A stretch of DNA of 63,182 bases, the filler included, from Rozella allomycis CSF55 (Eukaryota): assembly GCA_000442015.1 (NCBI GenBank). It is 15 parts of 15 records of this genome, joined end to end, with 100 filler letters (N's around TTAATTAATTAA, not from the genome) between each part and the next. Parts side by side here need not be neighbours in the genome. Positions count along the whole stretch, not along the records: positions 40,477 to 59,201 come from KE560749.1; 14 more parts are not named here. One strand, written 5' to 3'. Positions 1,146 through 50,239 of this stretch are shown piece after piece (positions within the stretch are counted from its first letter, which is position 1; every line of letters starts with the position of its first letter). The translations under genes and the position numbers were made by a program. The notes beneath the pieces were generated by a model. It ran no database searches. It was given only the letters and a program-made list of their open reading frames with translations, and was not told the DNA's origin.

Positions 1146-4100
1146 ATGCAAACAAATTTTCTCGACCATAGACATTTCGATCAGGCTGTTTCTTATTTTG
1201 TGTCTTTGAATGATAATAGGCGGCTACTGAATAATACGATTTTGGCGTTTTGTGCCAAGAGAGAAACGCATTGTTCGACTCTTTACCATTCGGTATTGCC
1301 TCTGTCTTGTTACTCGTCGACTGTCAAAAAAGAGAATATAGATTTTATTTTGAAGCATGTGAGAGCGACATTGAGAAAGGAAGAGGACACAAAGATTACA
1401 TTAAAGGGACATGTTATTGCGCGAAGGGATGTAAAGGTGTGTTTATTGCTTGCCAGTTTGATAATTATATTGAAATCGGTGGATGCGGAAGAGGCGTGTA
1501 AGATAGTTAACAAGAATGCTGCAGTGATTACCAAGGGGCTCTTTGACAGTTTTACATCGTCGCATGTGATTGCAAAGCCTTTGGTGGCATTTTATAAAGA
1601 TTTGGTTGCGATAACAAAAGTTGTTAGAAATGCAAAGAGTTTTAAAGTGTTTGAAGACTTGTCCAGCCGCTTTTTGGAACATCCGTTTAACAGTNNNNNN
1701 NNNNNNNNNNNNNNNNNNNNNNNNNNNNNNNNNNNNNNTTAATTAATTAANNNNNNNNNNNNNNNNNNNNNNNNNNNNNNNNNNNNNNNNNNNNCTGCCA
1801 CCTGAAATGGAATCCCGGTTCGATAACATAATGCAGCAAACGACAAAGTAATGTTATCACGTTGACCCACAGTTAGGTTGTCCACAAACTGTGACATCAG
1901 TACTTGGCTACTTGAACGTTGTGTTGAGAGTTCGGTATTATCAGTAAAAGAAGTGTCGCTGGTTGAATCAGCCATAGATTTACAAATTGTACGATATGCA
2001 CTTTGTCGCTTAAAAAAATCTCTCTCGATTTCAGGAATGTCCTTGCAACTGGCGCGTTTATGAGAAATAACTTTTTGTCGACCCCAGTATACAGTTTTGC
2101 CACAGGCTTTACATTTCCCGTTACCACCATTTTTTGAGCAAAGATATTCGCTAACGTCAAACGTCATAAAAATTGTGGCTTGGTAAAAGTCACTTACTGG
2201 TAAGTAAAATTTACTATACGGTAACTTACCGTATATAGCCGGTAAGTNAAAACACTTAGTCATGACGATAGTAAATATTGAAATTTAGTGATGATATAAA
2301 CTATGAAACATGGTTCTATTTATATCAATCAAAATGATTACTTCTAAGTAGGGACTGGGGCAAAGTTAGGGTAACTGCGCCACACAAGTAAAAGTTTTGT
2401 AGATCAGAAAATAAGATCTTGATGATAAAGAATTCGAAATTTTCATCAGATAAGAAAGTGGATATGAGTCAAGAACATCTAGTTTTATTGAACGGTTTTT
2501 TTGAGTTTCCTAACATGGTGCAAAGCAACTTACAAAGTAGTTCATCTGTTTTGAATGTTTTGAACTTGTTTTTAGCAATGCTCAAGCAAAAAGGCGAGGT
2601 ATATTAGTATGTCTCACAGTATCATAGGATCTTTTGGATAGTGGTGTCAAATTTAGTTCACTGCATCAAGTAGTGAAAGGTTTGAGTGAAGGATTTGATA
2701 AGTGCAACATGGACAAGGATTATTTTGTGAATTGGTTCGGAGATTTTGGATGTGCACTTGTGGGGCGCAAATGTCGTTTTAACAAATTTAAACTTACCTT
2801 GGTATTCTTGGACGGTTGGGTGTCTTCCGTGGCAAATGCAGATAAACGGTTTGTCAGCGTTAATGCCAGTCCTTCTGGATCGAATTGTTTTGAGTTTGGA
2901 GAGCACAGTAAAGATGACTGCATTAAAGTTATAACTAATTTGCATCAATTGATAAGTGCCTCATTGGTGACAAAGAAAGGAGGGAAACCTCAACTTGCTA
3001 GGACCCCTTCTTTTATTCGTTATTTAATCATGAATATATTTAATGGGCAAACTGATTTGAAAATTGAGGGAACAACTGACGTTGGAAATCATGATAAATG
3101 CACCCCTAAAACAACGGCATTTGGTTTAGTAGTCAATGTGATTCAAAATTTAGCGAAAATGACTGAAATTGAGCTCTATTTATTGATGGTTCATTTTTCA
3201 TTCTATTCGTTCAATCTTTACGTGAAAATCCAGTCTTCTGTATGGCCAAAAGAAGCAATAAACAATCTTAGTATCATTCTCAAACGTGCAGCGAGTTATA
3301 TGTCAAAAATTTATAAAATATATGATTGTTCCAAACTTTTTAATGAGTTTAATAGTTGTTGCAAGGAGTTAAAGGGGATCACTGAAGGCCTTAATACCAA
3401 AATACAAGAGCAACTAAAAGTAGAGTTAAGTAAAAGGTAAACTAATATTATAAATTATATATTAGTTACGAGGTCCGTGATTTAAATTTTTGTGACGTTC
3501 CATACCTTGAAAGCGATGGACAAGTGAAGAATATAAATGAAGTGGAGAAAATTGTTGCTCGTAATATCGGCTCATTTAATAATATCATAATTGACGATCA
3601 AAAAAATCAATTTTCTATTTTGAATAGTTTTATTGAAGGGAAAGGTGTAGATTTGAATGACTCCGAGTTTGGCGAATTATTTATTGCGAAAACAAACAGA
3701 ATGATGTATAAGAAAATGTTAATTCTTGAAAAAGAAGACATTCATAACTTAGATTCAAATGAACATCAGTTGATGAGGAATATTGTAATAACGTATACTT
3801 CTATTGTGAAAAAAATGCTGGAAAAGTACAAGCATGATAAAATGAAGTCTGTTGTTTTAAGCAATGAGGTTTTAGTTACGTGGATTGCCTGTTGTTTATC
3901 ATATGCATATTCAAAAGAGTGTGTCCCAGAATTGAATGCATTTTCTTTGCCTCTTTCGGCATGTGATCTTTCGTATTTATCACTTGACGATAAGTTATCA
4001 AGAGATGCAGTTATTTCATTATTTAATTACATTGAGAGGATCGAGGAGACTAGGGAGTTAGACGTATTCAATATGAATAATTTACGAGGCACATTTGAGT

Positions 4101-7100
4101 TTGCCCTTAAATACGGGAAAAATAATATGGCAATAAAAAACTACGTCAAAGAAACAAGGAATTTTTTGAGATCAGTTGAACAAAACGATTGGGATGAAAT
4201 AGAAAGAAAGAAGCGACGTGCAAGTGAACTTAGAAGGACTATAAGTTCACTCGAAAGTGATTATCAATATCTTGTAAATGAATATGAAAAGTTAAAGTTG
4301 ATATATAATGACAACTATTATGGCGATAACAGCGGCGATATCTATACGAAATTAAGGGAGGCAACAAGTCAAAAGGATCGTTGTTACAGCAGAATAAGAT
4401 CAAGCAGAACGATTCTCACCGAAGAACTTAAAGCTCCAAAATTTATTGTTAGTCCCATTCCGAGAGAGGATGATGATGCATTAATAATCACTTTCTTTCA
4501 TTTCATGAAGAATCCAATTCTTATTTTTTCTGAACTTTGCTTGGAAGCCCAATATTCTCTTTGTCCAAAGGAATTAAATGCGTGGAACTCCTTCAAAGAA
4601 AAGCATAAGATTACTGGTACAAGTTGGATGGACCACATCGTTAGTTATAGTTCAAGAAATCTTAATCACGGACAAAATTTTCATTTTTCAATTGTAAAAG
4701 GAAGTATTGACGTTCCCAAAGATTTTGGACCTTCAAATATTGACAGTATTGACAAGAGTACCGAAAGAATTTGGTATCCCATGTTTCAGCCTTCATTGAT
4801 AAACTGTACTAAAGGATGTAACATTTCCTTTGTTTCTAACGAAATTTTGAAGTGTTTGTTTATCGAACCCCTTGGCCAGAGTTATAATAAGAATTTGTAT
4901 TGGATAAATCAATTTCCTTCTACTTTGGACAAGCCTTCGGATCGTGGAAATTTTGCCTATTCAAAACTACAGTTTATCCCTAAAGATTTCAGAAAGGATG
5001 AATTTCAAGCGATTGCATCCTTGAGATCATTTCCTTTTCAGCAAATTAGAAAATTGGCAGCCGGTTTAAAAGACGGAACTCTACAACTATCCAATCAATT
5101 AGTGAAAAAGACGGTGAGACAGGCTCTTTATCAAATCGGGGAAATTGAAGACTCATCATTTGTTTGGCATTTTGACTTGCATAGAGATTTCTCAGGCTCT
5201 AATGAAATTGATTCTCTTTTAGATAACTTAAGTTTAAGCGGAGAAGGCACACAAATGGCTCGCACGGGTATTGATGTGTTTAATGAAATTCTGAAATCTC
5301 TAGCAGAGGAGATTAAGTTTACACCAAGAAATTATGAAAATATTATGCTATTATCTGAGATAGGAAGATTTATTTTTAACTTGAGGGATATTGGTGAAGA
5401 TGTAAGAATGTCTTTTACAAACGTTGTGGAGCATTGGTTAAGACTAGTAAAAGATGAATTAGGAAACATTAAAAATACAGTAGAAGAAAATTTATATCTT
5501 AAGGCGAAAGAATGTCTTTTTAATGGATATGGAATAATATGCTTAGGAAGGGGTTCATTGACTGTAGAAAGTGGCAAATTGATTGTTAAATACCTACTTG
5601 GTTTTTATAATGGATTAGCGTATGAAGAATGGGCTAGAAACGACAAATGTTTGATGAATGCTTTGAAAAGTGTACGCGAGCTGGTCAATGATTGCATGGC
5701 CTATCAACTAGACAATATTTTAGATTTGCTCATTTACTCCAATCATGGCGGTGACATATTGAATTATGCTGTGAAGTCAATTTTTGATTGTGTACCTGAG
5801 GGTTTGAAGTGGACATATTTCAAAGATTCTGTAGTGTTTTCTTCTAACGTAGATGGAACAATATACTCTGTAAATACCTTTAAAGGAATATTTCTTGTAA
5901 ATGGAATTCCACCAAGTAGACTATCAAAAGAAATCAAGAGTCATCCATTATATAAAAGAACGTTTAAAGATAGAGATTTTGAAGTTGTCCCTGATTCAGA
6001 GCCTGGGGTTTGTAAGACAACAACTCCAGTTCAAGGATTTTATTACAAATTTAGCATTTCGAATGATGGTTTATTAAAAGTACAGGAAATAAATGAAAAG
6101 GACGGAACAGTTTTGGATCTAATTGATTACAATAGCGGAGATTTTGTTATTAGTGATGAACTTCCAGAGAGATTGACAACAGAATATAGTCATTGGTATG
6201 ATATCGAGAAAGAGATTATGGTTATAAGGGAAGTTGAATTTCATAAAAAGTTAATTTTTTACTTGATAACGTTTGATGATGATGTGATGTATTGCTATTA
6301 TGTTAATGAACATTTAAGATCCAGATCATTAAACAATCTGGTCGGTATTTCTAAAGATTACTTGAATAGATATGTTCATGTTGAAGATAAAGGAATGATA
6401 AAATTGCTTTCGAGATTTGAATATTCTTCATTTATTGAAACTATGAGAAATCCTTCTAACGTTCTAATGTATTACTTTCCCAGATTTCATTTAACATTTT
6501 ACCACACGGACAATAAGGTACACAGTGAAGCGTTCCCAGATTATGTTTTACATTCGCATCAGGTTTTACAAGGAACTTTGGAGTATTTTGATTCATATTT
6601 AGTATTAAGAAATGATAGAGACGAGTACAAAATAATCGTGCCAAAAGGAGTTGTAATTTTAGATAATAATAGGGTGAGGATCAGTTTAAGCGAGGATTGT
6701 AACGCACAGTTATCTTTTTACAGTTATAATATTAATAAAAGGACTGGGGAGCTATATGCCAATTCTATTTCATCTAGACTACAATTAGCAGTTATCTACG
6801 CGGCATCTTCTACATTCGTTATTAGCCCATCGAATAGAATGACTGGCACTGAAATGGCCATTGAATATTTAAAGCAAAGTTGGATCAATAGACCTTTAGA
6901 TATAAGTGAAAGCAAAGTAATTGAAAATTTGTTTAAATTTTCGCATGACGAACCTTTGCTAACAGAGTTGTGCGTTAAACTGCTAGAAGAATCACAATTA
7001 ACCAACATAATACATGAAAAAGCGCAATATGAAAGCGATAATAATAAAGATTTGCCGAATAAAGACGAGAATTTTAGTAGGGTTCATGTGGCATTGACTG

Positions 7101-10100
7101 AAGGGACATTGAGAGCCAAAACGAATATTAATCATCATATTAGAAGATCAGATAGCTTGAATAATAAATTTTATGGTAAAAGTGTAAAAGTTGGCGAATA
7201 TTTCATCGAAGAGAACTTTGTGACTGAGATCGAAGAGAAATTAGAATCATTTGTTGAAAAGCGTGTAAAAGATGAAATTAAACCATTTCCTTTTAATAGT
7301 GAAAATAAAAATGCAATAATGATTGACATTTATAAAGATTTGGAAAAAAGTTGGCTGGAAAATGAAAAGCGAGAACGTCTTAGTTCCATTCAAAGAGGTG
7401 AATTACTTGAATATCTAGAAAGTGTTTATGCCGCAGTTCAGAGTAGAAAAGAAGAAATTGAACGATACATTTATGACAGCATTGAAAAAGTTCCAAGTGA
7501 AGAAAGTGCCATGATGAATTGCTTCAAAACTATTAACCTTGCTGCGTCGGCCAAAATAACTGATATTTATAGGCTTGTTATTGACAAATCTCATCTCAAA
7601 TTAATGAATCCTTACCTTTGTAATGAAAGTGTTGACAGAATTCAGAAATGTTCCATTCAATTTTTAAAACTATGTGTGCTTTGCGATAAAATAGAGAGGA
7701 TTCAGAACGGTTTATCTGATAATTTATCAAATTCAATTTTAGCTAAAGATTTATTGTGTAAAAGGATTTGGAATGCGGAGTGTAACCCTAGGTGGCTGGT
7801 TTTTGAGGCCGAAAATGAAATGCAAATACGACCTATTCAATATCTTTTTGCACAATTTTTAATAGAAAATCCATTTTCCATTTGTCAGTTAAACATGGGT
7901 TGTGGAAAGACCAGGGTTGTTTTGCCAATGTTGATTATGCATTATGTTGAAAATAATAAAGTCCCGTGTGTATATGTTATGAATTCACTGTTAAGAGAAA
8001 ACATTGAATATCTGCATTTAACTCTGACGGCAAGCAGCCAGAATATTCAAGTCCTTGAGCATCCTTTTAGCCGCCAAGTTGAAATGACTGAAGATGATAT
8101 TTCTATATTTATGGATTATTTGTCTACCCCAAATGCTTGTTTAATATCTTGTCCTGAATACAGAATGTCGTTAATGTTAAAACCACATGAATTGAAGTTA
8201 AAAGGACAATGTCAGATGATGACGAAATTACAAGAATATATAAGAATGAATAAATTTGTAGAAATCTTCGATGAAAGCGATGCGCTTTTGTCCCATATTT
8301 ACCAATTAATTTATACGGTTGGCACCCAAACTGAATTGACAAAGTTTTTTGAAAGATCAGTAATAATTCAAGCGACCCTTCAGATATTAAACTCTAGTCA
8401 ACGTATTCATGATTATTTATCAGAGAATAAATTATTAAATTTTGAAAAGACAAAATTCGATGGTGAGTTATACAAGATAAGATTCCCTGTTGAACTGATG
8501 GCAGAAGGATTGACCGAAAGAGAAACTTGGATCAAAATATGTGAAATGATATTTTATGAATTAGTAGGAGGGGTTTTTGAAAATCTTGAGTGGATTAGCG
8601 TCGTGTTCAAACAGAGCAACAAAAACTTTAAACGAATGTTCAAGGAAGCTGTTTTCAATTTAAATTTTGATCCTTCGAAATTTCTAAGAAAAATTAATGA
8701 TGAATTTAAGGAATCCCATGTGTTAATGTTGCGCGGGTTATTCGCGCATGAAATTTTGTTATTTATTCTTAAAAGGAGATATCAAGTAGAATATGGAATA
8801 GATGTTAAACGAAGCAAAAGAATGGCTGTTCCGTATAAGGCTGCTGACATTCCCACCGAAAAATCAGAATTCAGTCATCCTGATGTTTGTCTAGGTTTAA
8901 CAATTTTGTCGTATTACCATAATGGATTAAATAAAGAACAATTGAGACAAGCGTTTAGATTACTTTTATCATTTGGATCAGTCAGACAAGAGAAACTCTA
9001 TAATGCATGGTATGATTCAATAAAAGCTAATCTTGATCAAAATGAGATAGAAATGATAGATAAAGTGAATAAAATTGACCCAACATCAAGAAGATGTTTT
9101 ACATAAGAGGTTTGGGAAATGTATTAAAGTAATTAACTTTTGGCTGAACTATATAATTTTCCCAATAGATACTATTCAATATCCTCAAAGAATAGCTGCT
9201 TCAGCATGGACTTTGACAAGTGGTGACCATTGCATTGGGTTCAGTGGTACTAATGATACTAGCAAGTTATTGCCCTCAAATGTGGTTCAACGTCAACCAA
9301 ATATCCAAGAATTGATATCAACCAATGGACTAATGCTGAATTGTATATTAAATCACTCAAAGTATTACTCTTTTAATATTGTTAATTTGACTTGGAAGGA
9401 GATAGTAAATTTTTGCCTAGAAAAACAGTCAAATGCATTAATTGATACAGGATCATTATTAGCAGGAAAGTCAAACAAAGAACTAGCGGAATACATTCTT
9501 TTACAAAATTCATTTATTAACTCTGACTTTAAAGGGATATGTTATTTTGACGTTAATTTTGGCACCAATGGTCAGTGGATGGTTATTGAGAAAGGCACAA
9601 ATAAAATAAATACTTTGGTTGACTCTCATATACATGAAAAGGATACATTTGTTATTTTTGATGACGCAAGATCTAGAGGTGCTGACATGAAGTTAAAAGA
9701 CGATGCCACTGCAGTCATTACATTAGGCCCGAAAATTACTAAAGATAAATTTATGCAAGGGGCGGGAAGAATGAGAAAACTGTTAGATAATCAAAGACTG
9801 ATTATTATTTCTTCATTTGAGGTTAATGTATCAATCAAAAAGGCGATAAGTAGTCTGAATCATGTGCCTACAATAAATGATGTCATACAGTGGATTCTGC
9901 TTAATACTGAAAAGACTGTCATGGAAGGATTACAAATGTGGACAAGTCAAGGTTTACAGTATGCAAAACAAATGAAAAATCCAGATTCAATAGTTTGTAA
10001 TGAAAGGATCAACTTAACTGACCTTTATGGATTGAAGCATTTTGACCGCTCTTTAATGGATGAATACTTGCCTATTGCTGACAATTTGCCAAACACCAAA

Positions 10101-10850
10101 ATTTCTCAATCTTTAAGAAATCAATTAGTAAATTATGGTGCTCAAGTTATTGTCTCTTCTTCAGGCAACAATGAACAATGCGAAAGGGAATCAGAACTAG
10201 AAATTCAAGAGCAGCAAATTGTTATGAGAGAATACCCAACGGAAAAGGCTGTTTCTGAACATCCTTGGAATTATCGTGACCTATTAACAGGAAAAGGAAT
10301 TAATGTGGACATTTATAACTTGTATGAAACAATCGGTAGCCTTTTTGGAATTCCCAATATTGAAATGCTTGGTTGGAACAAGGACAGAATATATTGCACT
10401 AAAAATTTTTACAAGTCCATTGAGCGAAAAGCTCCAATTGATTGCTTTGCGAAATATATTAATATGATTTTAGAAAGTCCTTCTGGTGAAATTTATATTC
10501 TATCCGATATGGAAGCGGACGGGTTCCTTTACGAATTTTCGATCATTGAAACTGACTGGAAATTATATAATTTGACATTTCTGTATGAAAAAAATGCATT
10601 TTTTAGATTTGCCAAGGATTTCAAAAAGATTTGCGACGATAAACTAGTCACCTTAAAGTTTTTCAATGGTGAAACGATGTTCAACTCTGATGGTCAATAT
10701 CGCTGTCTTCAAAATTTAATTTCTCAAAATCACTGCGAATCAATTGTTAAAGACTTTCTTAATGTACGCGGCACTCTTAGGAAATACGAATCGTCACATC
10801 TTCAAGAAGTCATCCAACGGGCGTCAGACATCGAACTTGCATCAAGATAA
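1146..10850 (+). CDS. Giant (~3000 aa) DUF3638/DUF3645-family P-loop protein; spliced at the 5' end, interrupted by a hAT fragment plus gap and by a +1 frameshift near 9085 (possible pseudogene or allele)
   Basis: PRWLVFEAENEMQIRPIQ...QLNMGCGKTRVVLPML (DUF3638); RMAVPYKAADIPTEKSEFSHPDVCLGLTILSYY (DUF3645); GFSGTND, DDARSRGADMK, QGAGRMRKL, EQCERESELE. Intron 3437-3465 joins the 2634 and 3524 ORFs in frame. Linking the 1146-1694 ORF to this gene is inferred. Confidence 0.85.
1695..1793. other. Assembly gap linker N44-TTAATTAATTAA-N44 (recurs throughout the window)
   Basis: The same six-frame-stop linker sits in nearly every N run; it is artificial. Confidence 0.97.
1794..2258 (-). mobile_element. 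hAT-like DNA transposon 5' end (BED-finger transposase N-terminus), truncated by a gap
   Basis: CKACGKTVYWGRQKVISHKRASC zinc finger and FAALCYRTGIPFQVA, typical of hAT transposases; subterminal CTTACC/GGTAAG inverted repeats at 2190-2250. Confidence 0.65.
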
Positions 10851-10957
10851 ATGATTANNNNNNNNNNNNNNNNNNNNNNNNNNNNNNNNNNNNNNNNNNN
10901 NTTAATTAATTAANNNNNNNNNNNNNNNNNNNNNNNNNNNNNNNNNNNNNNNNNNNN

Positions 10958-12039
10958 GCCAACTGAATAAGGTAATTGTCACACACAGATGGATCTACTC
11001 TATTATCTCTCAGCAAAAGCTTGACAATATCTGAATGACCTTTCGCAGAAGCCCACTTAATAGAATAATTTTCATTTGCGCTTGGATCCACTCTAGAATC
11101 GCCAAGCAAAACTTTGACTACTTCTAAATGCCCCTTATAGGAAGCCAACTGAATGAGGGAATTATCACGTATAGTAGGATCTACTCTATCATCTCTCAGC
11201 AAAAGCTTGACAATATCCGAATGACCCTTCGAGGTAGCCCACTGAATAGCATAATTTTCAATTGCACTCGGATCCACTCTATAATCGCCAAGCAAAGCTT
11301 TGACAATTTCTAAACACCCCCTAATGGAAGCCAACCGAATAAGAAAATGCCCATATATAGTTGGATCTACTCTATCATCTCTCAGCAAAAGCTTGACAAT
11401 GTCTGAATGACCATTAATAGTGGCCCAATGAATAGCACCATTATTATTTGCACTTGGATCTACGTTAGAATATTTAAGTAACACTTTGGCAACATCTACT
11501 TGGTCCATACTAAGAGCCCCCTGGAGAGTATAATTCAGATCTGCTTGATCAAATTGGAATTTTGTTAAAAGTTGCCAAACAATCTCAGTGTGTCCGTTTA
11601 TTGCAGCTGCTCTTATTGCATAGCTTCTATCCGCCATAGGGTCAGGTTGAATATTAAATTTTTTGTTACACCTGATCGTATCTTGGAATACATGCATTAG
11701 ATCATATTGACAGGCAAACTGGAACGCATAGTCAACGGTTTTCTGGCTAAGTTCACTTTGCTTGAGAAAGTTCATAAAATAGACGAATCGGAAACAGTCT
11801 TCACTGCGGCGAAGGATATTCCAACAAATATCGTCGGTTAATAATTTACCGCATTTCCTCTTGATTATATACTGAATTACATGCTCACATTTCCAAGAAA
11901 TACTTAGTAAAGGAGGTTGATTAAGGACATAGTCGCAGCAAAGTGAACGAAGCCAAACTGATGTTTTAGAAATTTGTTTCAAATCATCTACGCTTAAGTG
12001 CCGCAAAATTAAAAGCCAAATCTCGAGTGGGAAATGCAT
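10958..12039 (-). CDS. F-box plus ankyrin-repeat protein (3' end in gap)
   Basis: N-terminal FPLEIWLLILRHLSVDDLKQISKTSVWLRSLC F-box, then ~34-aa ankyrin repeats (AIxWAxxxGHSDIVKLLLRDDRVDP). Confidence 0.9.
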
Positions 12040-31750: not shown

Positions 31751-33195
31751 ATGAGGTTCAAATTCTGTGCATTCATTTATTTTATCAGCGCATTTCTTTA
31801 TATTTCAGCCTATAAATTCAATAGACAAGAAAAAAGAATTGTTGCAAAAGCTACTGCGAAAGCGGCGATGAAAGCAATTGCAGTCACTCCAGTAGCAACA
31901 GTAGCGTCAGCTGTAGCGACTATGTATCATCCTCTAGCTGCATTGGCTGAAGTTACTAAAAGAAATCAGACTCAAGCCAAATACCACATGACCCAAGCTG
32001 GACGCGCCTTCTTAGGAACACTAGCAAGTCCATTTCTGGTATTTTTGACACCTATTATTAAATATCACGAAACAACCAATCTAATTATCAATACTAATTA
32101 TAGTTGTTCTGCTATCATAAACAGGAACAACCCATCTGAAATATTCAGCACTGGTTACGAAATATTTACTGCCTTGGACGCTCAATTTCTAAAGCAACTG
32201 CTATTAAAAGTTAAATTTGAAGGAGAAGCTAGCGCATTTCAAAAGGGCCCAGCCAACGAATTCTTTTTTCTTTTTGCGGCGACATTGCAAAATGAGCCTT
32301 TCGATTTGTTCGATTATGATAACAATAGATCTATTTTCAAAATCAAACCGGGGATAAAATCAGATGAAAGGATTAAAAGATTTAAAACTCTTGGAAAAAT
32401 TCTTGGATTCTATGCCTACAAAAAAATACCCATTGGAATGGCATTCCCGAATTCATTTTACAAAATTTTGCTTAAAAAACAATTGTCAAGAAAGGACTAC
32501 TCTAAAGATGATCAAATCGCATACAATAATATGATGAAACTGAAAAGTTGTTCAAATGAAGAGCTGGATGATATGTTTATATATTACCCGCCTCCAGATG
32601 ATGAAAAAATGGTCAATCAAATCAATTTAGAAGACTATATCGAGTACCTATAATTTTTACCCTGTATTTAGAAAGCAATCACTTTTTCAGATGTACGGAT
32701 ATGCCAAAGATGAAATTGACGCGGTTGCTGCTGAATTTCAAAGATTCGTAAAGCCCTCTATGTTTAAATCGCCTATAAAATTAAAAGTGAGTATAATTTA
32801 TCATTTTTACAGCTAGAAATTGTTAATCGGAGAGACGGATTTCCATTTAATCAAGGAAAGTCTAATCGCCAATGTCAAACTTTCATACTATTCCCGTTCC
32901 GACTTGGTCATATCGCTACTATTTAAATATATACGACAATTAAGCGATGAATCTTTGAAGAAATTTTGGCGATTCATCTCCGGAAGCGAGTATTTCGCTG
33001 CGTCCACAAAATTGACATGGTCGGTGAGCAAGGGTACATCAGAGATGGCGCTCCCATCAGTTTTTACATGGTAGCAAGCATAAATTATTAAAATGTAGTT
33101 TCAGGCACGTTATCATGCCTAGGTATACAAATTATGAATCTCTGGCCACAAAATTTGATCAAGCAATTGAAGCAACAGACTTTGCACTAGCTTAA
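31751..33195 (+). CDS. HECT-domain E3 ubiquitin ligase with a predicted N-terminal signal peptide
   Basis: MRFKFCAFIYFISAFLYISA; VKFEGE...GPANEFF; FKTLGKILG...FPNSFYKILL; KKFWRFISGS; removing intron 33071-33098 gives LPSVFTCFRHVIMPRY...TDFALA*. Confidence 0.85.
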
Positions 33196-39049: not shown

Positions 39050-40376
39050 TTTTGTTTTCGTGTCTTCCAACTCACCAAATTTCCATCAAAAAATATTAAA
39101 TATCCTGTTGTACTTTTTCCTGTATCTTTATCCGTTGCCCAATCTGCATTTCTGAACCCTTCTACCTGTATCCTTCCTTTTTTCACACTTGATACGCCAT
39201 CGTCACACTTGTATGTGAGAAAGAAATCTTTCGTTTCCTTTAAGTATCTCATAATTCGTTTGACTAATTTCCAATGCTGTTCCCCTGGATTTTCCACGAA
39301 TCTACTTGCCATTGTCACGGCGCTACTAATGTCGGGTCGTGGCATTGCTTGAATCCATTGAAGGTTCCCTATCGCCTCCCGACGCCATGTTCACCGCGCT
39401 ACTAATGTCGGGTCGCGTCATTGCTTGAATCCATTGAAGGTTCCCTATCGCCTCCCGATATGGTATCTCAATTTCTCAGCTTCACTTTGTGGGCTTTGTG
39501 ATGTGCTGTAGTCGGCCCCTCTTTCCATTGGTGTGGATATTCCTGCGCATTCTTCCAATCCAAATTTTTTNCGGTATTTCCTTCATTCTCAATTTCGCAG
39601 CTTCACTTTGTGGGCTCTGTGATGTGCTGTAGTCGGCCCCACTTTCCATTGGTGTGGATATTCCTGCNTTCAATTTCTCTGCTTCACTTGGTGGGCTTTG
39701 TGATGTACTGTTCTTCTAATCCAAACTTTTTCAAAGTATCTTCATAAAATGTTTCTTGTGACAGTCTTATCTCTTTCTTTTCCGCATCTTGTTCAATGTT
39801 ACTTCCTAAGCACCAATTCAATTTCCCCAAGTCCTTTATCTTGTATTGAGCGTTCAGGTATGTTTTCGTCTCACTCAGCATTTCTTCGCAGTTCGTTGCT
39901 ANCAATGATTTCTTCAGTTTGCACACCTTCGTTTCAGATCCTTTTTCGGCGAAGCCATTTGGTTGTTCCATGTAAATCGTCTCACTAATCTTACCGTTGA
40001 GATACGCAGNTCGTAGAGCGCCAATATAATTGTCTTATTCTTTTGTTTCTTGGTGTATACGCAGTAGTCGGACTGGCATCTCTTGAATCCCGCCCTTTTC
40101 TAATCCTTGTCATTGCGCATGTTCCATTGTCGTCTAGCTTGTTTCAATCCATACAATAATTTTTTCAGTGTGCATACTTTCGTTTCAGATCCTTTTTCGG
40201 CGAAGCCCTCTGGTTGTTCCATGTAATCGTCTCACTAATCTTACCGCTGAGATACGCAGTTTCGACTTTTAATTGGTGTAGTTTATAGTGTCCTGACGCG
40301 GACAGTGCAATAATTGCTTTCACTGAAGTATGTTTCGCCACTGGTGCATATGTTTCGAAGTAATCTCTCCCTTTCA
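39050..40376 (-). mobile_element. Ty1/copia LTR retrotransposon RT and RNase H fragments, collapsed and degenerate
   Basis: TYAPVAKHTS; AYLNGKISETIYMEQPNGF...VCKLKKSL; IKDLGKLNWCLG; RPDISSAV; ADWATDKDTGKSTTGY...VSWKTRKQ. Confidence 0.92.
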
Positions 40377-40476
40377 NNNNNNNNNNNNNNNNNNNNNNNN
40401 NNNNNNNNNNNNNNNNNNNNTTAATTAATTAANNNNNNNNNNNNNNNNNNNNNNNNNNNNNNNNNNNNNNNNNNNN

Positions 40477-40695
40477 GGAACATGTTGAAAATCGAAGATA
40501 ATCTTTAAGAGGTAAAGATTTACCCACTCTCAAAAGTAAATCAGCGGGAAGTTTCTCGATTAACGCAGGACTTTTTGTTTCAGTGTCTACCACAAGCTGA
40601 TTTTTTGCTTCTGGAACCAAAGAAGGATCTTGGTTTGTCATTGGAACGGCCAAAACAATCGTAAGTAATAGAATTGTGCTAAGAAATATCTTCAT
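40477..40695 (-). CDS. Signal peptide plus F-box protein (3' part in gap)
   Basis: MKIFLSTILLLTIVLA|VP signal, then LIEKLPADLLLRVGKSLPLKDYLRFSTCS. Confidence 0.7.
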
Positions 40696-40944: not shown

Positions 40945-43900
40945 TTAAAAAGCAAATGAATCATTTCTGAAAATATCCAAGAGGGCATCTTCCAAGGAAT
41001 GTCTTCCGATAGCAAAGTCCAGAATAATACCCTTTGATTTCAACGAGAGCATTTTTTCGATAACTTGACTGATAGGCATTGAAAATGATAATGAAAATGT
41101 TAAACACTTGTTGACGGACTGCTGAATGGAGTAAGTTGCTGATCTATCGCCTTGAAGAATAGTATCCATCACTTCAGAAACAATGTTATGAGCAGCATCA
41201 ACAAAGGTGATGTTTGCCTTGTAGCCATTTGCAATCTTTTGAAACAATTCGTGCTCTGTTCCGATAGCAGATAACTTTCCTTGATTAACAACGGCAATGC
41301 GATCGCAGCTTGAAGTTTCATTGAGATAGTGGGTGGTCATAATTGTAGTTCTATTTTTATTCAACTCGCGAACAGTGCACCACATTTTGTGTCTAGCCAA
41401 AGGATCCAAACCAGTTGACGATTCGTCAAGAACAACTAGATCTCTGTTCAACATGATTGCAATCAAAGTGCTGACTTTACGTTTTGTACCACCACTTAAC
41501 GATCCACATTTATAGTTTGCAAAAGATGAAAGACCCATCGCTTGTAATAAATCTTTTATATATTCATCAGCAACTTTAGAACTTTGTCCATTTAATAAGA
41601 GAAATATTTTGAGATGATTGTGAACAGTCATTGAAGGAACTAGAAGATTATCAAATTGAGGACAAACACCCATTTGACGAATAGCATTGAGCCTGTTTGC
41701 ATGNCGAATAGCGTTGAGCCTGTTTGCATGAACATCTAACTCTTTTAAATGAACAGAGCCAGATGTAGGTGTCATTTGACTAGTAAGCATATTCAAAGTT
41801 GTTGTTTTCCCACATCCATTGGGGCCTAATAGAGCTAATAATTCATTATTTTTGACGTCCAAAGAGAGATTGTTAACAGCAATTTTCTTTTTAAATACTT
41901 TGGTAAGATTTGATAAGCTAACTGAAACTTTGGGATCAGATGAAGTCGACGGCGCAGCACTTCTAAACATGTGTTTCAATTCATTTATAGCGGCCATTAA
42001 AAGAAAGATCAAACTCCAAACTAAACATGAAATGATTTTAGTATCGTAATCAAAGAAGGGTGTAAGTTCAGCCGTAGACCAAAAGGGTAAGTAAGTATAG
42101 ACTATAGTGTTCAAGAGTTTAATAGTTTCAATATCAAGGCTTGAGGAAAGTAATGCCAATGTAGCAAAGAAGATGATGAGACCATAATTAACGATAGTGC
42201 TTAAAAAGGAAACGGTACTTGGCCTGAAAGAAGAAGATGCCAGAATAAAGCAAAAATAGAAAAAGAAGTATGAAAAGTAGAATGATCCGTGTCCATCATA
42301 AGGCCCAAAATATAAAGGAATATAGATTGGAAGTGTTTGAATTAAACAAATAAAAAGTTTTGAAATCCAAATTGATCCCAGAGGAACCCCACAAGAGAGC
42401 ATTAAATAGTCAAACATTTGGGAATTTTCAGAGAGTTTTGAAGACACGTTCGAATACAATTGACTCATTAAAATGACCAATAAAAATGGGACGATTCCTC
42501 TAGCGATTAAATTTAGCACCATTGATGTATTTCCCTTGATGTATTCAATAAAATTGACTGTTGGAGGATTCTCATATTCCATTTGAGAAAATTTGTGAAG
42601 AAAATATAAAGGAGCGGCATCATAACCATTAAATGTATTCAAGACAATATGATCATCATCAACATTTTCAATCCAACCTAAATTCAATTCATTTTCAACG
42701 TTTTCTTCAAAGTGATTAAATTTTAATAACTTTTCATCGTTTGTTTTGTAAGAAAATCCATCAATTAAGAGATTATCAAAAAGTTGATCAGAAAGTGTGA
42801 CATTTGAATTTATAGAAACTTTGCTACTTGATTCAGAAATTTTTGTTAAATCGATTGGTTTCATGTGTTTACTAAGATTCATTATAGCAAGCAATAAAAG
42901 AATTGAAGGGATCATTGAAAATAAATAATTTGAGAATTGGGAAGAAAACTTTAAAAGTTCAAATTTAGAATAGAGAAGAGTTTTTTTGATAAAAAACAAT
43001 TTCTCAAATTTCGGAATCACAATTTTAGAAATTTCAGAATTTTGCTCATTTTGTTTTTTCTCGTTTCCAACTTTATCGAATATTTTATCGAGTCCATTTT
43101 CTTTCAAAATGAAACTTTTAATCATTGATTGAATTCCTTTGTCATTTTCAAATTCTTTAATTAATTCAAGGACATTTGAAGGAAACGAAAATTCAGAAAA
43201 GTTTCCAGAAATTTTGACTTGAAACCCTTTGCAATTTCTATCTTCAAACCAACTAAGAAACAAATCTTGATTAAAGTTTTCATACTTCTCCACAGATAAA
43301 TTGTATCCAGTGCTGAAAATAGTCTTAATAAACTTTGAAGTTCCAACGCAGGTGATTTGACCACAAGTCATCATGGCTTTCCTGTCAGCTAACAGATCAG
43401 CTTCATCCATGAAATGAGTACACATTAAAATTGCCTTGTTGTTTTTATTTCTTTGAATGAAATTCCAAATAACTCTTCTGTTGTCAGCATCAACTCCACT
43501 CGACATTTCATCTAAAACAACCAATTCAGGGTTTCCAACAAAGGCGATTGCGATTGAAACTTTTCTCTTTTGACCGCCAGAGAGACCTTTAACTTTTTGA
43601 TCAATAATTTCNCACCAATTCAGGATTTCCAACAAAGGCGATTGCGACTGAAACCTTTCTCTTTTGACCGCCAGAGAGACCTTTAACTTTTTGATCAATA
43701 ATTTCATTCATTCTCAATTCATGAACACTCTTTTGAATTGATTCTAAAACTAATCTTCTTTCCAATCCTTTCATTTCTGCATAAAACTCTAAATGATCAC
43801 GAACAGTCAATTCATCATAAAGAATATCATATTGTGCACAAATTCCAATCTTTTCTGAAATTTCGCTTCTTCTTTTTGAGTCTTTCCCAAAGATTGAAAT

Positions 43901-45361
43901 GCTTCCTTGAGTCGCATGGATCGTTCCAGTTAAAATGTTAATCAAAGTGCTTTTGCCTGCACCATTAAATCCGATCAACCCAAAAACTTCATTCTTTGCA
44001 AATTCCAAATTGATGTTATTCAAAGCCTTCACGCTGCTTCCTTGGTAAACTTTACTAACATTTTTAATGCAAACTTTTTCTAAATTTGATAGACTTGAAA
44101 CAAAACTATTTTCCCGTTTAGAGTCCAAAACTTTTTCATCTTCAACAACTTTGACTTTTCTTTCAAATAGTCTTGTTATTCCATACAGAAGAGGTCTTTT
44201 ATAATCAACACTCACTTGCAACCAATCCATATAAAATGCAATGAAAATATAAAATACACCAAACAATAAATTAACAATCGCCACTTCTGCTGTAGATGGA
44301 AGATAATTCGGAACTCTAACTAACGTTAATGAAGGATCAGCAAATGGCGTTATTTCCATAATTTTATAAAAATATATCAATGAAAATCCAGGAATTGAAC
44401 AAAGTAAATACACAACTAAACTTGACATTCTCTTATAAACCATTATCGGTAACACTTGTGGACAAATCGCTATAAAAATCATCAATGTGAAAATCAAACT
44501 CCTTCTTTTGATAAACCTCAAAACCTGTGAAATCATCATAAAAAGTCCTGCATATTCAAAAGCTAACGCCAACGAACAGGTCACAACGGAAGTAACATCA
44601 GATTTAATAAATGAATACGTCGTTCCAATAGCAATTAAAGAATAGATAAGCGTAACAGTAACTGGAATAAACAACACTCCAGCAAAATACGAACTCTTCT
44701 TCATCCCAGACATTAACAATCCAAATTTCAATCCCTTTTCCAAATCTTCTTTAATCAATCTATCATAAAATTCCCAAACTGCTATAAAAAACAAGGGAGA
44801 AAACCACGTAAACACCATAAACTTTTCTTTCATGTCCATATTGAACGATTCATATTCCGATGGCATCAATTTAAAATCAATTCTCTTATTTTCCTTGCCA
44901 ATCAATGCATTTTCAATATCACTTCTCTTCTGTGCAATTTGATTCAACACTTTTGCATACTGCGAGGCCTCGGACGATACTTTGAAATTTCCGTTCAACA
45001 TTCCACCATCTCCTTTCAGCAACACATCATACGCCAACTTCTTTGCTTCTTTATCGTACGATGTAATATTAAAGACAACATCATTCGACCAAACGCTCTC
45101 CACACTTGCATCATACTTGTGCACCTGGAAAGGAGACAACAACCTGGCAATCTCTACACTATCTTCCCCGTTGTAGTCAAAGTAGAACATGCCAATACTT
45201 TGCTCATAACCTAAAGACATGCTGGGTGGTGTTCCACCCATAAATCTCGTCGCTAATATCCACAGAAACAACCCTATAACAAAGTACTTTCTCTTAAACG
45301 ACCAGTACAGGCGAGCTTGCAGCTTTACCAAACTTTTCACTTGTTGAAAAAAGGAAACCAT
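40945..45361 (-). CDS. Full-size ABCA-subfamily transporter, apparently intronless; split by an assembly duplication at ~43612
   Basis: Two TMD-NBD halves: GFNGAGKST/LSGGQKRK/VLDE and GPNGCGKTT/LSGGTKRK/VLDESSTGLDP; ABCA motif IGICAQYDILYDELTVRDHL. Confidence 0.93.
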
Positions 45362-49328: not shown

Positions 49329-50239
49329 TTAATTAAACATGTATCGAATTATAAGCGCCCCAAATACGATTGCCGAAATTAATGGAATGCCTGCATGAAG
49401 ATTAACAGACTCGCTTTGACTTCCTGGTTGCGCCTTTGGTTCGGATAAGCCTACGCATTCTTCGGCGTTCAGAAAGCTAATAGACAATTTTTGCAGTTCT
49501 GGTAAAAGGACTGGCATTGTATTCGCCGTTTCAATGTGAATGTCATGCATGAGGAGAATCGGCGAAATGGGAGCGGCGGCTTTTATTTGCTGTAAAGTGC
49601 TATTAGTTGTTTTTTGCGGATTCAAATATGACCAATCCATTGAATCTACATTCCATAATATCATTCGATATCCTTGATTTGCAACAATATCAACCGTTGA
49701 TGAATTGTAAGCGCCGTAGGGAAATCTAAAGTATTTGACCTCGTATCCTTTTAAAATCATACCCTTAACGTACCTGTAGCCTCTTTAATAACCTGCCTAG
49801 TCTTGGAGAGATCATCAATGATGGCAGCTTCGCTCAAAGTCGTGTAGTTTATGTGCGACCAGCTATGGCTAATGATTTGATGACCTTCATCAATTATTCG
49901 TTTCGCGATGGAAGGATTTTGTTGCACTAGACTTCCAAGCACAGCAAAGGTGGCTTTTACTTTGCGCGCTTTAAGCTCATCAAGAACTTTTGGGGTTGAG
50001 GTCCTGATTTAAGGTAATGCATTATTTTTTTACGGATTGGGGCCATCATCAAAAGTTATTGCGATATTTTTGCTCCCTAAACAAACACTGAAAAGCCCTC
50101 TGTCATCTGGTGGATAGGCAGTGGAGGATGTGATCAATGCCTTGTGCGCACTCATTACCCTAGCAGGGACTGGAGGTAGTTTCTCCAAAGATACATTTGA
50201 AAGAAAAATAAGACACAGACAAAGTAGCAGGCGGGTCAT
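49329..50239 (-). CDS. CE4/NodB polysaccharide (chitin) deacetylase, secreted, with a C-terminal hydrophobic or GPI tail
   Basis: TFDDGP, HSWSH, FRFPYG, WNVDSMDW and LLMHD motifs; signal MTRLLLCLCLIFLS; two introns. Confidence 0.93.

Follow-up and report, generated by a model that had tools for sequence, protein, structure and literature searches.

The window analysed here, a stretch of 63,182 nucleotides from Rozella allomycis CSF55, carries the 5' end of a gene whose product would be an exported, membrane-displayed, host-facing SCF adaptor with LRR-based substrate selection. We put the probability of this reading at roughly 55%. The gene appears to belong to an expanded Rozella-specific set, within which its predicted C-terminal anchor was unexpected.

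R. allomycis lives as an endoparasite in the water mould Allomyces. Rozella stands at the base of the line from which microsporidia arose; it takes over the cytoplasm of its host and causes septa to form. Hijacking of SCF is in itself a known strategy, and examples of exported F-box adaptors come from bacteria, viruses and one insect. On a wider and less probable reading, the genes described here would belong to an exported ubiquitination kit of a eukaryotic parasite, aimed at a fungal host. The kit would include a surface-bound branch, which is not described for eukaryotic F-box effectors in those parts of the literature that our search covered. The candidate SCF adaptors are named genes for work on Skp1 binding and substrate capture, and the putatively membrane-tethered member raises the question of how the host-parasite interface is passed by proteins or comes to display them.

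Composition of the window

The window consists of separate contigs of the genome assembly (G000; 11.86 Mb, 1059 contigs) joined by 14 identical linkers, each made of 44 N, a 12-base six-frame stop cassette and another 44 N. The linkers join separate contigs, so the order of the pieces and their adjacency across linkers carry no meaning. The features around the F-box reading frame are as follows.

40377-40476, no strand: artificial 100-base linker between contigs C400 and C401, unsized, not a scaffold gap
40477-40695, (-) strand: 5' end of the F-box ORF, bases 1-219 of contig C401
40648-40695, (-) strand: signal-peptide-like N-terminus, residues 1-16, from the translation and our own hydrophobicity and cleavage rule
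40561-40647, (-) strand: spacer, residues 17-45, which changes fastest and is modelled as disordered
40477-40560, (-) strand: F-box, residues 46-73, a Pfam match to positions 1-28 of the 43 in the profile

Translation of 40695-40477 on the (-) strand gives 73 residues: MKIFLSTILLLTIVLA, a 29-residue spacer and an F-box-like stretch. The succession of signal-like segment, spacer and F-box-like stretch claimed in the preliminary description is thus borne out. The frame opens two codons upstream of the ATG. An exon upstream of this ATG was rejected: the sole upstream ATG with a 35-base GT-AG stretch would be out of frame, as judged by eye. At the other end the ORF is truncated inside the F-box by the start of contig C401. 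The C-terminus had been described as lost in a gap; the “gap” is the artificial linker, and the missing part is traceable through the record P0002 and contigs C93 and C987.

The preliminary description also took the F-box ORF together with a HECT gene as a hint of an exported ubiquitination toolkit. The HECT gene lies on C395 and the F-box ORF on C401, two different contigs with artificial linker sequence between them, and a link by position is not supported. A dynein gene was assigned to C398 and a retrotransposon remnant to C400.

The 73-codon stretch is covered by contigs of all four DNA runs, and in three of these the contigs begin at most 11 bases from the start of C401; one public contig extends about 300 bases beyond that start. 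Among the 14 runs listed, no RNA run with the stretch appears, which speaks neither for nor against expression. A loose end at 40514 in run X6 was rejected, as it matches the reverse strand of the adjoining ABC-transporter gene and looks by eye like an amplification chimera.

Several other observations concern the window as a whole. The gene adjoining the F-box ORF on C401 encodes an ABCA-type transporter (40945-45361, (-) strand) with many allelic differences in the public contigs around 41118-41464. Very long ORFs of 1860 and 591 aa with DUF3638 and DUF3645 occupy 3524-10850 on the (+) strand. Scrambled reverse transcriptase and RNase H remnants, which we take from their motifs to be Ty1/copia-like, fill 39050-40376 (C400) and have copies on C514, C425, C526, C799 and C1. 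Several of the long ORFs reported by the ORF finder extend into the N runs of the linkers.

Signal-like N-terminus

The signal peptide was judged by our own heuristic, which is a different thing from SignalP. The rule demands an uncharged 9-residue segment with hydropathy of at least 2.3 near the Met and small residues at positions -3 and -1. For the window ORF it gives h 3.28 and predicts cleavage after Ala16. The start MKIFLS is common to the window ORF, P0002, P0003 and three copies on C93. Codon 7 is polymorphic and encodes Thr or Lys (site 40676); the other base occurs in contigs of three of the four DNA runs, and in two of these it makes up no more than part of the depth.

The rest of the gene

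P0002 is a 442-residue partial record that agrees with the window ORF at 72 of 73 positions (99%), codon 7 being the single difference, and then continues. Its residues 125-419, in the LRR region, match G000:C93:7943-8827 at 97%; residues 74-124 and 420-432 were looked for in the G000 assembly and not found. When the stretch of C93 further downstream was used for a DNA search, two small contigs, C987 and C621, came up. The first ten residues encoded by C987 are exactly the last ten of P0002, while C621 and the C93 copy differ from them at one position.

G000:C987:2-640: C-terminal 212 residues with a hydrophobic tail, overlapping P0002 by ten residues

C987 adds 202 residues beyond P0002, including four LxxLxL motifs. 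Its frame ends with three lysines and a 26-residue hydrophobic segment that runs up to the stop codon (best 19-residue hydropathy 2.24). A comparably hydrophobic tail is found in 10 of the 144 closed frames of at least 150 residues at the loci examined, C987 included. C93 carries two slightly different copies of a similar tail and C621 a cut one; in these paralogues on C621 and C93 the tail is preceded by an acidic stalk rich in Ser, Glu, Thr and Asp. Pairwise identity among the three C-terminal versions is 65-67%, which makes them paralogues.

From the ten-residue overlap we infer that C987 is the end of this gene. The gene was thus pieced together from three contigs and the second record P0002, and the whole protein would have about 644 aa: a signal peptide, a spacer, an F-box, about 15 LRRs and a membrane anchor.

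The contigs used for this reconstruction raise the suspicion that the copy has decayed or that it is an artefact of assembling a collapsed repeat array, in either case lacking a functional product. Contig C401 ends inside the F-box. In C93 a tandem array with four or five signal-peptide F-box/LRR genes has collapsed, leaving repeated segments and 13 single-N joints, and the 505-residue frame of this contig is chimeric, P0003-like before a joint and P0002-like after it. In this assembly the P0003-type copy, the closest paralogue, has an in-frame stop, and C119 has a startless relic, 67 residues long, of another member of the family. Nevertheless, the independent record P0002 is open over 442 residues, the contigs of all four DNA runs cover the stretch, and dN/dS is below 1 in the signal, F-box and LRR parts. 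We consider decay or artefact very improbable. The gene is real, intron-poor and one of at least three close paralogues.

Provided that C987 is the gene end, the protein has both a signal peptide and a C-terminal hydrophobic segment. The latter may be a single transmembrane helix, a GPI signal or a tail anchor. An LRR solenoid followed by such a tail makes a membrane tether likelier than free secretion for this copy.

The hydrophobic ends could also be read as anchors of the parasite's own SCF adaptor, with the F-box and LRRs facing the Rozella cytosol and working with Rozella Skp1 at the ER, food vacuole or plasma membrane. Such an adaptor would require no membrane crossing. The three lysines before the tail resemble a tail anchor, and by the positive-inside rule they would favour the bulk of the protein in the parasite cytosol; one allele places Lys within the N-terminal segment; P0002 and C987 together have only two N-glycosylation sequons; and Rozella has a Skp1 gene of its own (with a 26-base intron). 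The N-terminus, however, has a short hydrophobic core and small -3/-1 residues, as a cleaved signal would, and the signal recurs without the anchor, most other signal-peptide F-box genes examined having no tail. Housekeeping adaptors should moreover have relatives outside Rozella, and the homology searches returned none. We regard an adaptor serving the parasite's own cell as unlikely and prefer the exported, host-facing one.

Predicted fold

An AlphaFold2 model of P0002, built with eight aligned Rozella sequences, has pLDDT 74.5 and pTM 0.72. Confidence is below 50 over residues 1-43 and reaches 77-84 over residues 51-90. Three F-box helices are followed by about 11 beta-alpha units. Together with the LxxLxL motifs, the model places a predicted LRR solenoid C-terminal to the F-box, as in FBXL-type receptors. 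No Pfam LRR was detected in P0002, C987 or C621.

RNI-like LRR chains match the model at Z 13-17, and the top score belongs to a generic one (Z 17.2, rmsd 4.0, 295 aligned residues); since the best scores go to generic RNI-like LRR proteins, they carry no information on ubiquitin ligases. The matches to FBXL17 (Z 14.9, rmsd 6.9, 310 aligned, model residues 48-442) and FBXL2 (Z 14.6, rmsd 6.7, 323 aligned, model residues 43-438) span both the F-box and the LRRs. Foldseek ranks COI1 first for the same model (E 1.1e-5), and the ESM Atlas returns F-box and F-box/LRR clusters with feature scores of 0.94-0.95. With the C987 piece the best ESM Atlas feature score is 0.85 and the structure TM about 0.5, which serves as a lead only. 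An AlphaFold2 model without alignment (pLDDT 49) was not relied on; its Foldseek matches are likewise F-box/LRR proteins.

Conservation of the F-box and the Skp1 model

The F-box is the sole Pfam match of the window ORF (PF00646, E 0.0038, 17.5 bits). A profile check of this kind had been suggested in the preliminary description; the profile does match the stretch, with a score below the gathering cut-off of 20.5 bits. P0002 likewise remains below it (16.6 bits), and P0003 (23.2) and P0004 (21.8) exceed it. The Leu49-Pro50 start of the F-box is present, and three helices are predicted at 51-59, 63-70 and 74-77.

Compared with P0003 and P0004, 32 and 36 of the 40 F-box residues are identical, against 105 and 128 of the 168 residues in the first LRR half; in the spacer only 10 of the 28 residues aligned with P0003 are identical. 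By a simple Nei-Gojobori count, dN/dS is 0.11 in the F-box (31 codons) versus 0.41-0.58 in the LRR parts (181-216 codons), with 0.29 in the signal segment (16 codons) and 1.7 in the spacer (25 codons), the values for signal, spacer and F-box coming from short segments and carrying wide error. No other part of the protein is as conserved as the F-box, which is under purifying selection.

Residues 41-95 were modelled with a stand-in Skp1. The complex, computed without use of the supplied alignments, scored 0.62, in three of three runs, and the best of three controls scored 0.02; the score mark of the tool is reached by 51 of 78 solved complexes and by 2 of 108 mismatched pairs. Contact agreement between the runs is at least 93% and partner pLDDT at least 71. 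The confident contacts involve residues 41-76, nearly all of which are encoded in the window. The stand-in is a metagenome protein (L142) and not the Skp1 of the host; it is, among the full-length frames compared, the best match to the first exon of Rozella Skp1. Searching for a full-length Skp1 with one exon as the query found none. As F-box and Skp1 are a solved pair, the pass may reflect memory, and it speaks for likeness rather than binding. Given purifying selection and the modelled docking, the F-box looks functional.

These results bear on a further alternative, a surface LRR protein (adhesin, receptor or coat) whose F-box is a solenoid cap or a Skp1-holding decoy with no active ligase. 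The order of signal, LRRs and C-terminal anchor, with an acidic stalk in two paralogues, is that of a type I or GPI protein. F-box scores are low across the family, and the host-derived compartment around the parasite may shield the F-box from Skp1. Against this stand the conservation of the F-box above all other parts, its docking on the stand-in Skp1 in the model and its retention before unrelated C-terminal domains (LRR, ankyrin and others). Cysteine-rich caps are absent as well, P0002 having 2 Cys in 442 residues. We consider a surface protein of this kind improbable beside the host-facing SCF adaptor.

F-box gene families in the genome

At E of at most 1, the G000 assembly has 65 matches to the Pfam F-box model and 54 to the F-box-like model. 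These correspond to 69 distinct loci, all of which were read. A genome-wide count of genes with signal and F-box had been suggested in the preliminary description. The layout does recur: by our own rule 16 of the 69 loci have a signal upstream of the F-box, and four more are borderline. Among the 16 is a pair of near-identical copies on C93, possibly alleles.

The frequency among F-box loci (16/69) exceeds that among other ORFs (4/74; Fisher p 0.003), a comparison in which the threshold was fixed after the N-termini had been viewed, F-box loci were allowed any upstream Met and the background the first Met only, and the background contains internal exons and opposite-strand frames and is not a proteome. 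In the background, 6 ORFs passed at first among 76 others with 150 residues or more, which became 4 of 74 when two missed F-box/ankyrin genes were dropped. When the first-Met rule is applied to F-box ORFs, 11 of 44 pass, including one false positive. As the loci come from two Pfam models and single-protein searches, the size given for the family is a minimum. In total, the genome would have about 15-20 signal-peptide F-box genes with varied C-terminal domains.

Predicted C-terminal domains of the signal-bearing members are LRR (C93, C119, C442, C1052) and ankyrin (C723), the others being unclassified. Such genes form tandem clusters on C93 and C119, and several are uninterrupted frames of 377-616 codons. 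In the ten full-length members checked, no 19-residue segment above 1.52 follows residue 40; two of the ten finish with a short hydrophobic stretch of 12 residues. A long tail is therefore a trait of the subfamily to which our gene belongs. Of ten translated ORFs of this genome, five have letter-for-letter counterparts in the protein collection; these are assigned to Rozella allomycis and carry the UniRef label “F-box domain-containing protein”.

A second expanded family has an N-terminal F-box followed by ankyrin repeats. A motif rule assigns at least 26 loci to it, all of them lacking a signal peptide, and one member lies in the window.

10906-12039, (-) strand: F-box and ankyrin gene without a signal peptide, contig C383, Pfam ankyrin matches

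The F-box and ankyrin layout is known from intracellular bacteria and large DNA viruses.

The HECT gene and other genes with signal-like starts or tails

31751-33195, (+) strand: signal-peptide-like start and HECT domain, contig C395, Pfam HECT E 1.8e-12

The HECT gene passes our signal rule. Beyond the first stop its C-lobe goes on by way of two 28-base GT-AG intron candidates, 32644-32671 and 33071-33098, the latter of which splits the codon of the likely catalytic cysteine; a third candidate probably lies near 32787-32816. The public HECT models P0012-P0014 (300-310 aa) end early. A copy of the gene that is 97% identical is found on C32. In a survey of fungal HECT proteins, six are given for Rozella, one of them outside the usual classes, and the parts of the survey that we consulted do not mention secretion (PMC5913265). 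At the level of the genome there is a hint that the HECT gene may be part of the same strategy as the signal-peptide F-box genes.

Other genes with comparable ends were observed in passing. In ORFs L044/L091 (G000:C500, about 257-259 kb) and L117 (G000:C119, about 14 kb) a signal-like start directly precedes the P-loop GTPase motif LLLGxxGxGKST, so they are possibly another case of an exported cytosolic-type domain. Locus L207 (G000:C476:1-1533) has two surface-protein-like genes, one with Asp-Ser-Glu-Thr repeats; the second ends in a transmembrane segment and a short basic tail. At 49329-49760 on the (-) strand of the window there is a polysaccharide deacetylase fragment with a hydrophobic GPI-like tail.

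Distribution and earlier reports

The literature that we searched, whose scope does not extend to the genome paper and its supplements, yielded no report on signal-peptide F-box genes of Rozella; an earlier mention is possible. The genome paper is reportedly James et al. 2013, whose supplement could list these genes. In the same literature no exported F-box adaptor was found for the Rozella/microsporidia lineage or for any parasite of fungi. For Rhizophagus clarus, a single F-box-like effector candidate appears in the part of the source available to us (PMC4746824).

Homology searches returned Rozella proteins only (3 matches among 8000 candidates scored, and 3 of 81). The single match among 1.84 billion representatives is itself a Rozella paralogue. 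Exact short-pattern scans, which miss distant relatives, found none in metagenome or viral contigs; a viral or metagenomic origin was set aside, as these scans detected no relative.

Host interface and proposed mechanism

SCF acts in the cytosol and nucleus, and we know of no use of the F-box in the secretory lumen. Rozella is an intracellular parasite, which makes the SCF of its host a plausible partner. The host-parasite interface is said to be three-layered (Powell et al. 2017). The Rozella protoplast pushes the host plasma membrane inward and sits in a compartment in the host cytoplasm, and the parasite phagocytoses host cytoplasm and induces host septa, according to the portions seen of two sources (PMC6317583; PMC10953367).

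For signal cleavage, topology, access to the host cytosol, partnership with host Skp1, ligase activity and any substrate, we propose the following putative course. The signal peptide would be cleaved and the protein would enter the secretory route of Rozella. The tail would then tether it on a membrane that meets host cytoplasm, for which the plasmodium surface, the surrounding host-derived membrane and the food vacuole that engulfs host cytoplasm are candidates. There the F-box would bind Skp1, presumably that of the host, and the LRR solenoid would pick proteins for ubiquitination by the SCF ligase.

The host-facing reading is favoured by three considerations: the F-box lacks a known lumenal use, the combination of signal and F-box stands before unrelated domains, and there is an analogy with microsporidia. 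In the latter, host-exposed proteins typically belong to lineage-specific families with signal peptides or transmembrane segments, and those with transmembrane segments are thought to reside on the pathogen membrane that touches host cytoplasm, as stated in the sections of the source that we saw (PMC5423893). The main obstacle to this reading is the host-derived compartment. Because it surrounds Rozella, as a source consulted in part describes, a protein fixed on the parasite surface may never meet host Skp1 (PMC6317583).

A wider scheme is possible but tentative. Tethered F-box/LRR adaptors would build host SCF on the parasite surface or food vacuole, and the untethered signal-peptide F-box proteins and the signal-peptide HECT protein would act further out.

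Comparison with known systems

The predicted domain order, an F-box followed by an RNI-like LRR solenoid, is that of the FBXL class (FBXL2, FBXL17, FBXL3, SKP2, TIR1, COI1, MAX2). The alignments with this class cover the model from residues 43-48 to 416-442 with identity of 10-14%. FBXL-class proteins are cytosolic or nuclear and lack a signal peptide, whereas the Rozella protein has a signal-peptide-like N-terminus by our own rule.

Legionella AnkB is an F-box effector that is anchored C-terminally to the pathogen-surrounding membrane and gathers ubiquitinated host proteins. It is the nearest working model for a tethered F-box. It differs in being bacterial, in having ankyrin repeats and in being anchored by host farnesylation.

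Among relatives of the same wider lineage and lifestyle, Nematocida displodere has the NemLGF2 family with a signal peptide and RING, as described in the parts seen of two papers (PMC4928854; PMC5423893). According to these parts, microsporidian families resemble the Rozella set in species-specific expansion, local tandem clusters, signal peptides or transmembrane segments, and LRR or E3-type domains. NemLGF2 has RING where the Rozella proteins have an F-box, and the main text of PMC5423893 has 0 occurrences of the term “F-box”. Furthermore, Nematocida parisii touches the host cytoplasm directly, unlike Rozella, for which a compartment is described, in both cases by sources seen in part.

Ralstonia RipG/GALA and Agrobacterium VirF are effectors aimed at host SCF, as given in the portions available of two sources (PMC4617103; PMC4312480). 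RipG/GALA proteins are likewise F-box and LRR adaptors, and the RipG4 LRR matches the Rozella model at Z 13.9 (rmsd 4.6, 273 aligned residues), a fold match that is common to many LRR proteins. RipG and VirF are bacterial and are injected by type III or IV systems, unlike the Rozella protein with its ER-type signal peptide.

SSGP-71 of the Hessian fly (Mayetiola destructor) combines an F-box with about 13 LRRs and binds host Skp, as stated in the part of the source that we saw (PMC4617103). An expanded family with an export signal, F-box and repeats is a layout to which that of the Rozella protein seems comparable. The signal peptides of SSGP-71 are reflected in the name of the family, secreted salivary gland proteins. 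Zhao et al. 2015 is said to be the primary paper on them. The insect delivers its proteins in saliva into wheat, whereas Rozella is a fungus-like cell living within a fungus; the set in Rozella is smaller, with C-terminal domains of mixed kinds, and the copy described here has a hydrophobic tail. No sequence homology to SSGP-71 or RipG was found in the database searches, which returned Rozella proteins only. Convergence of the Rozella protein with SSGP-71 and RipG appears to be the best reading of this comparison.
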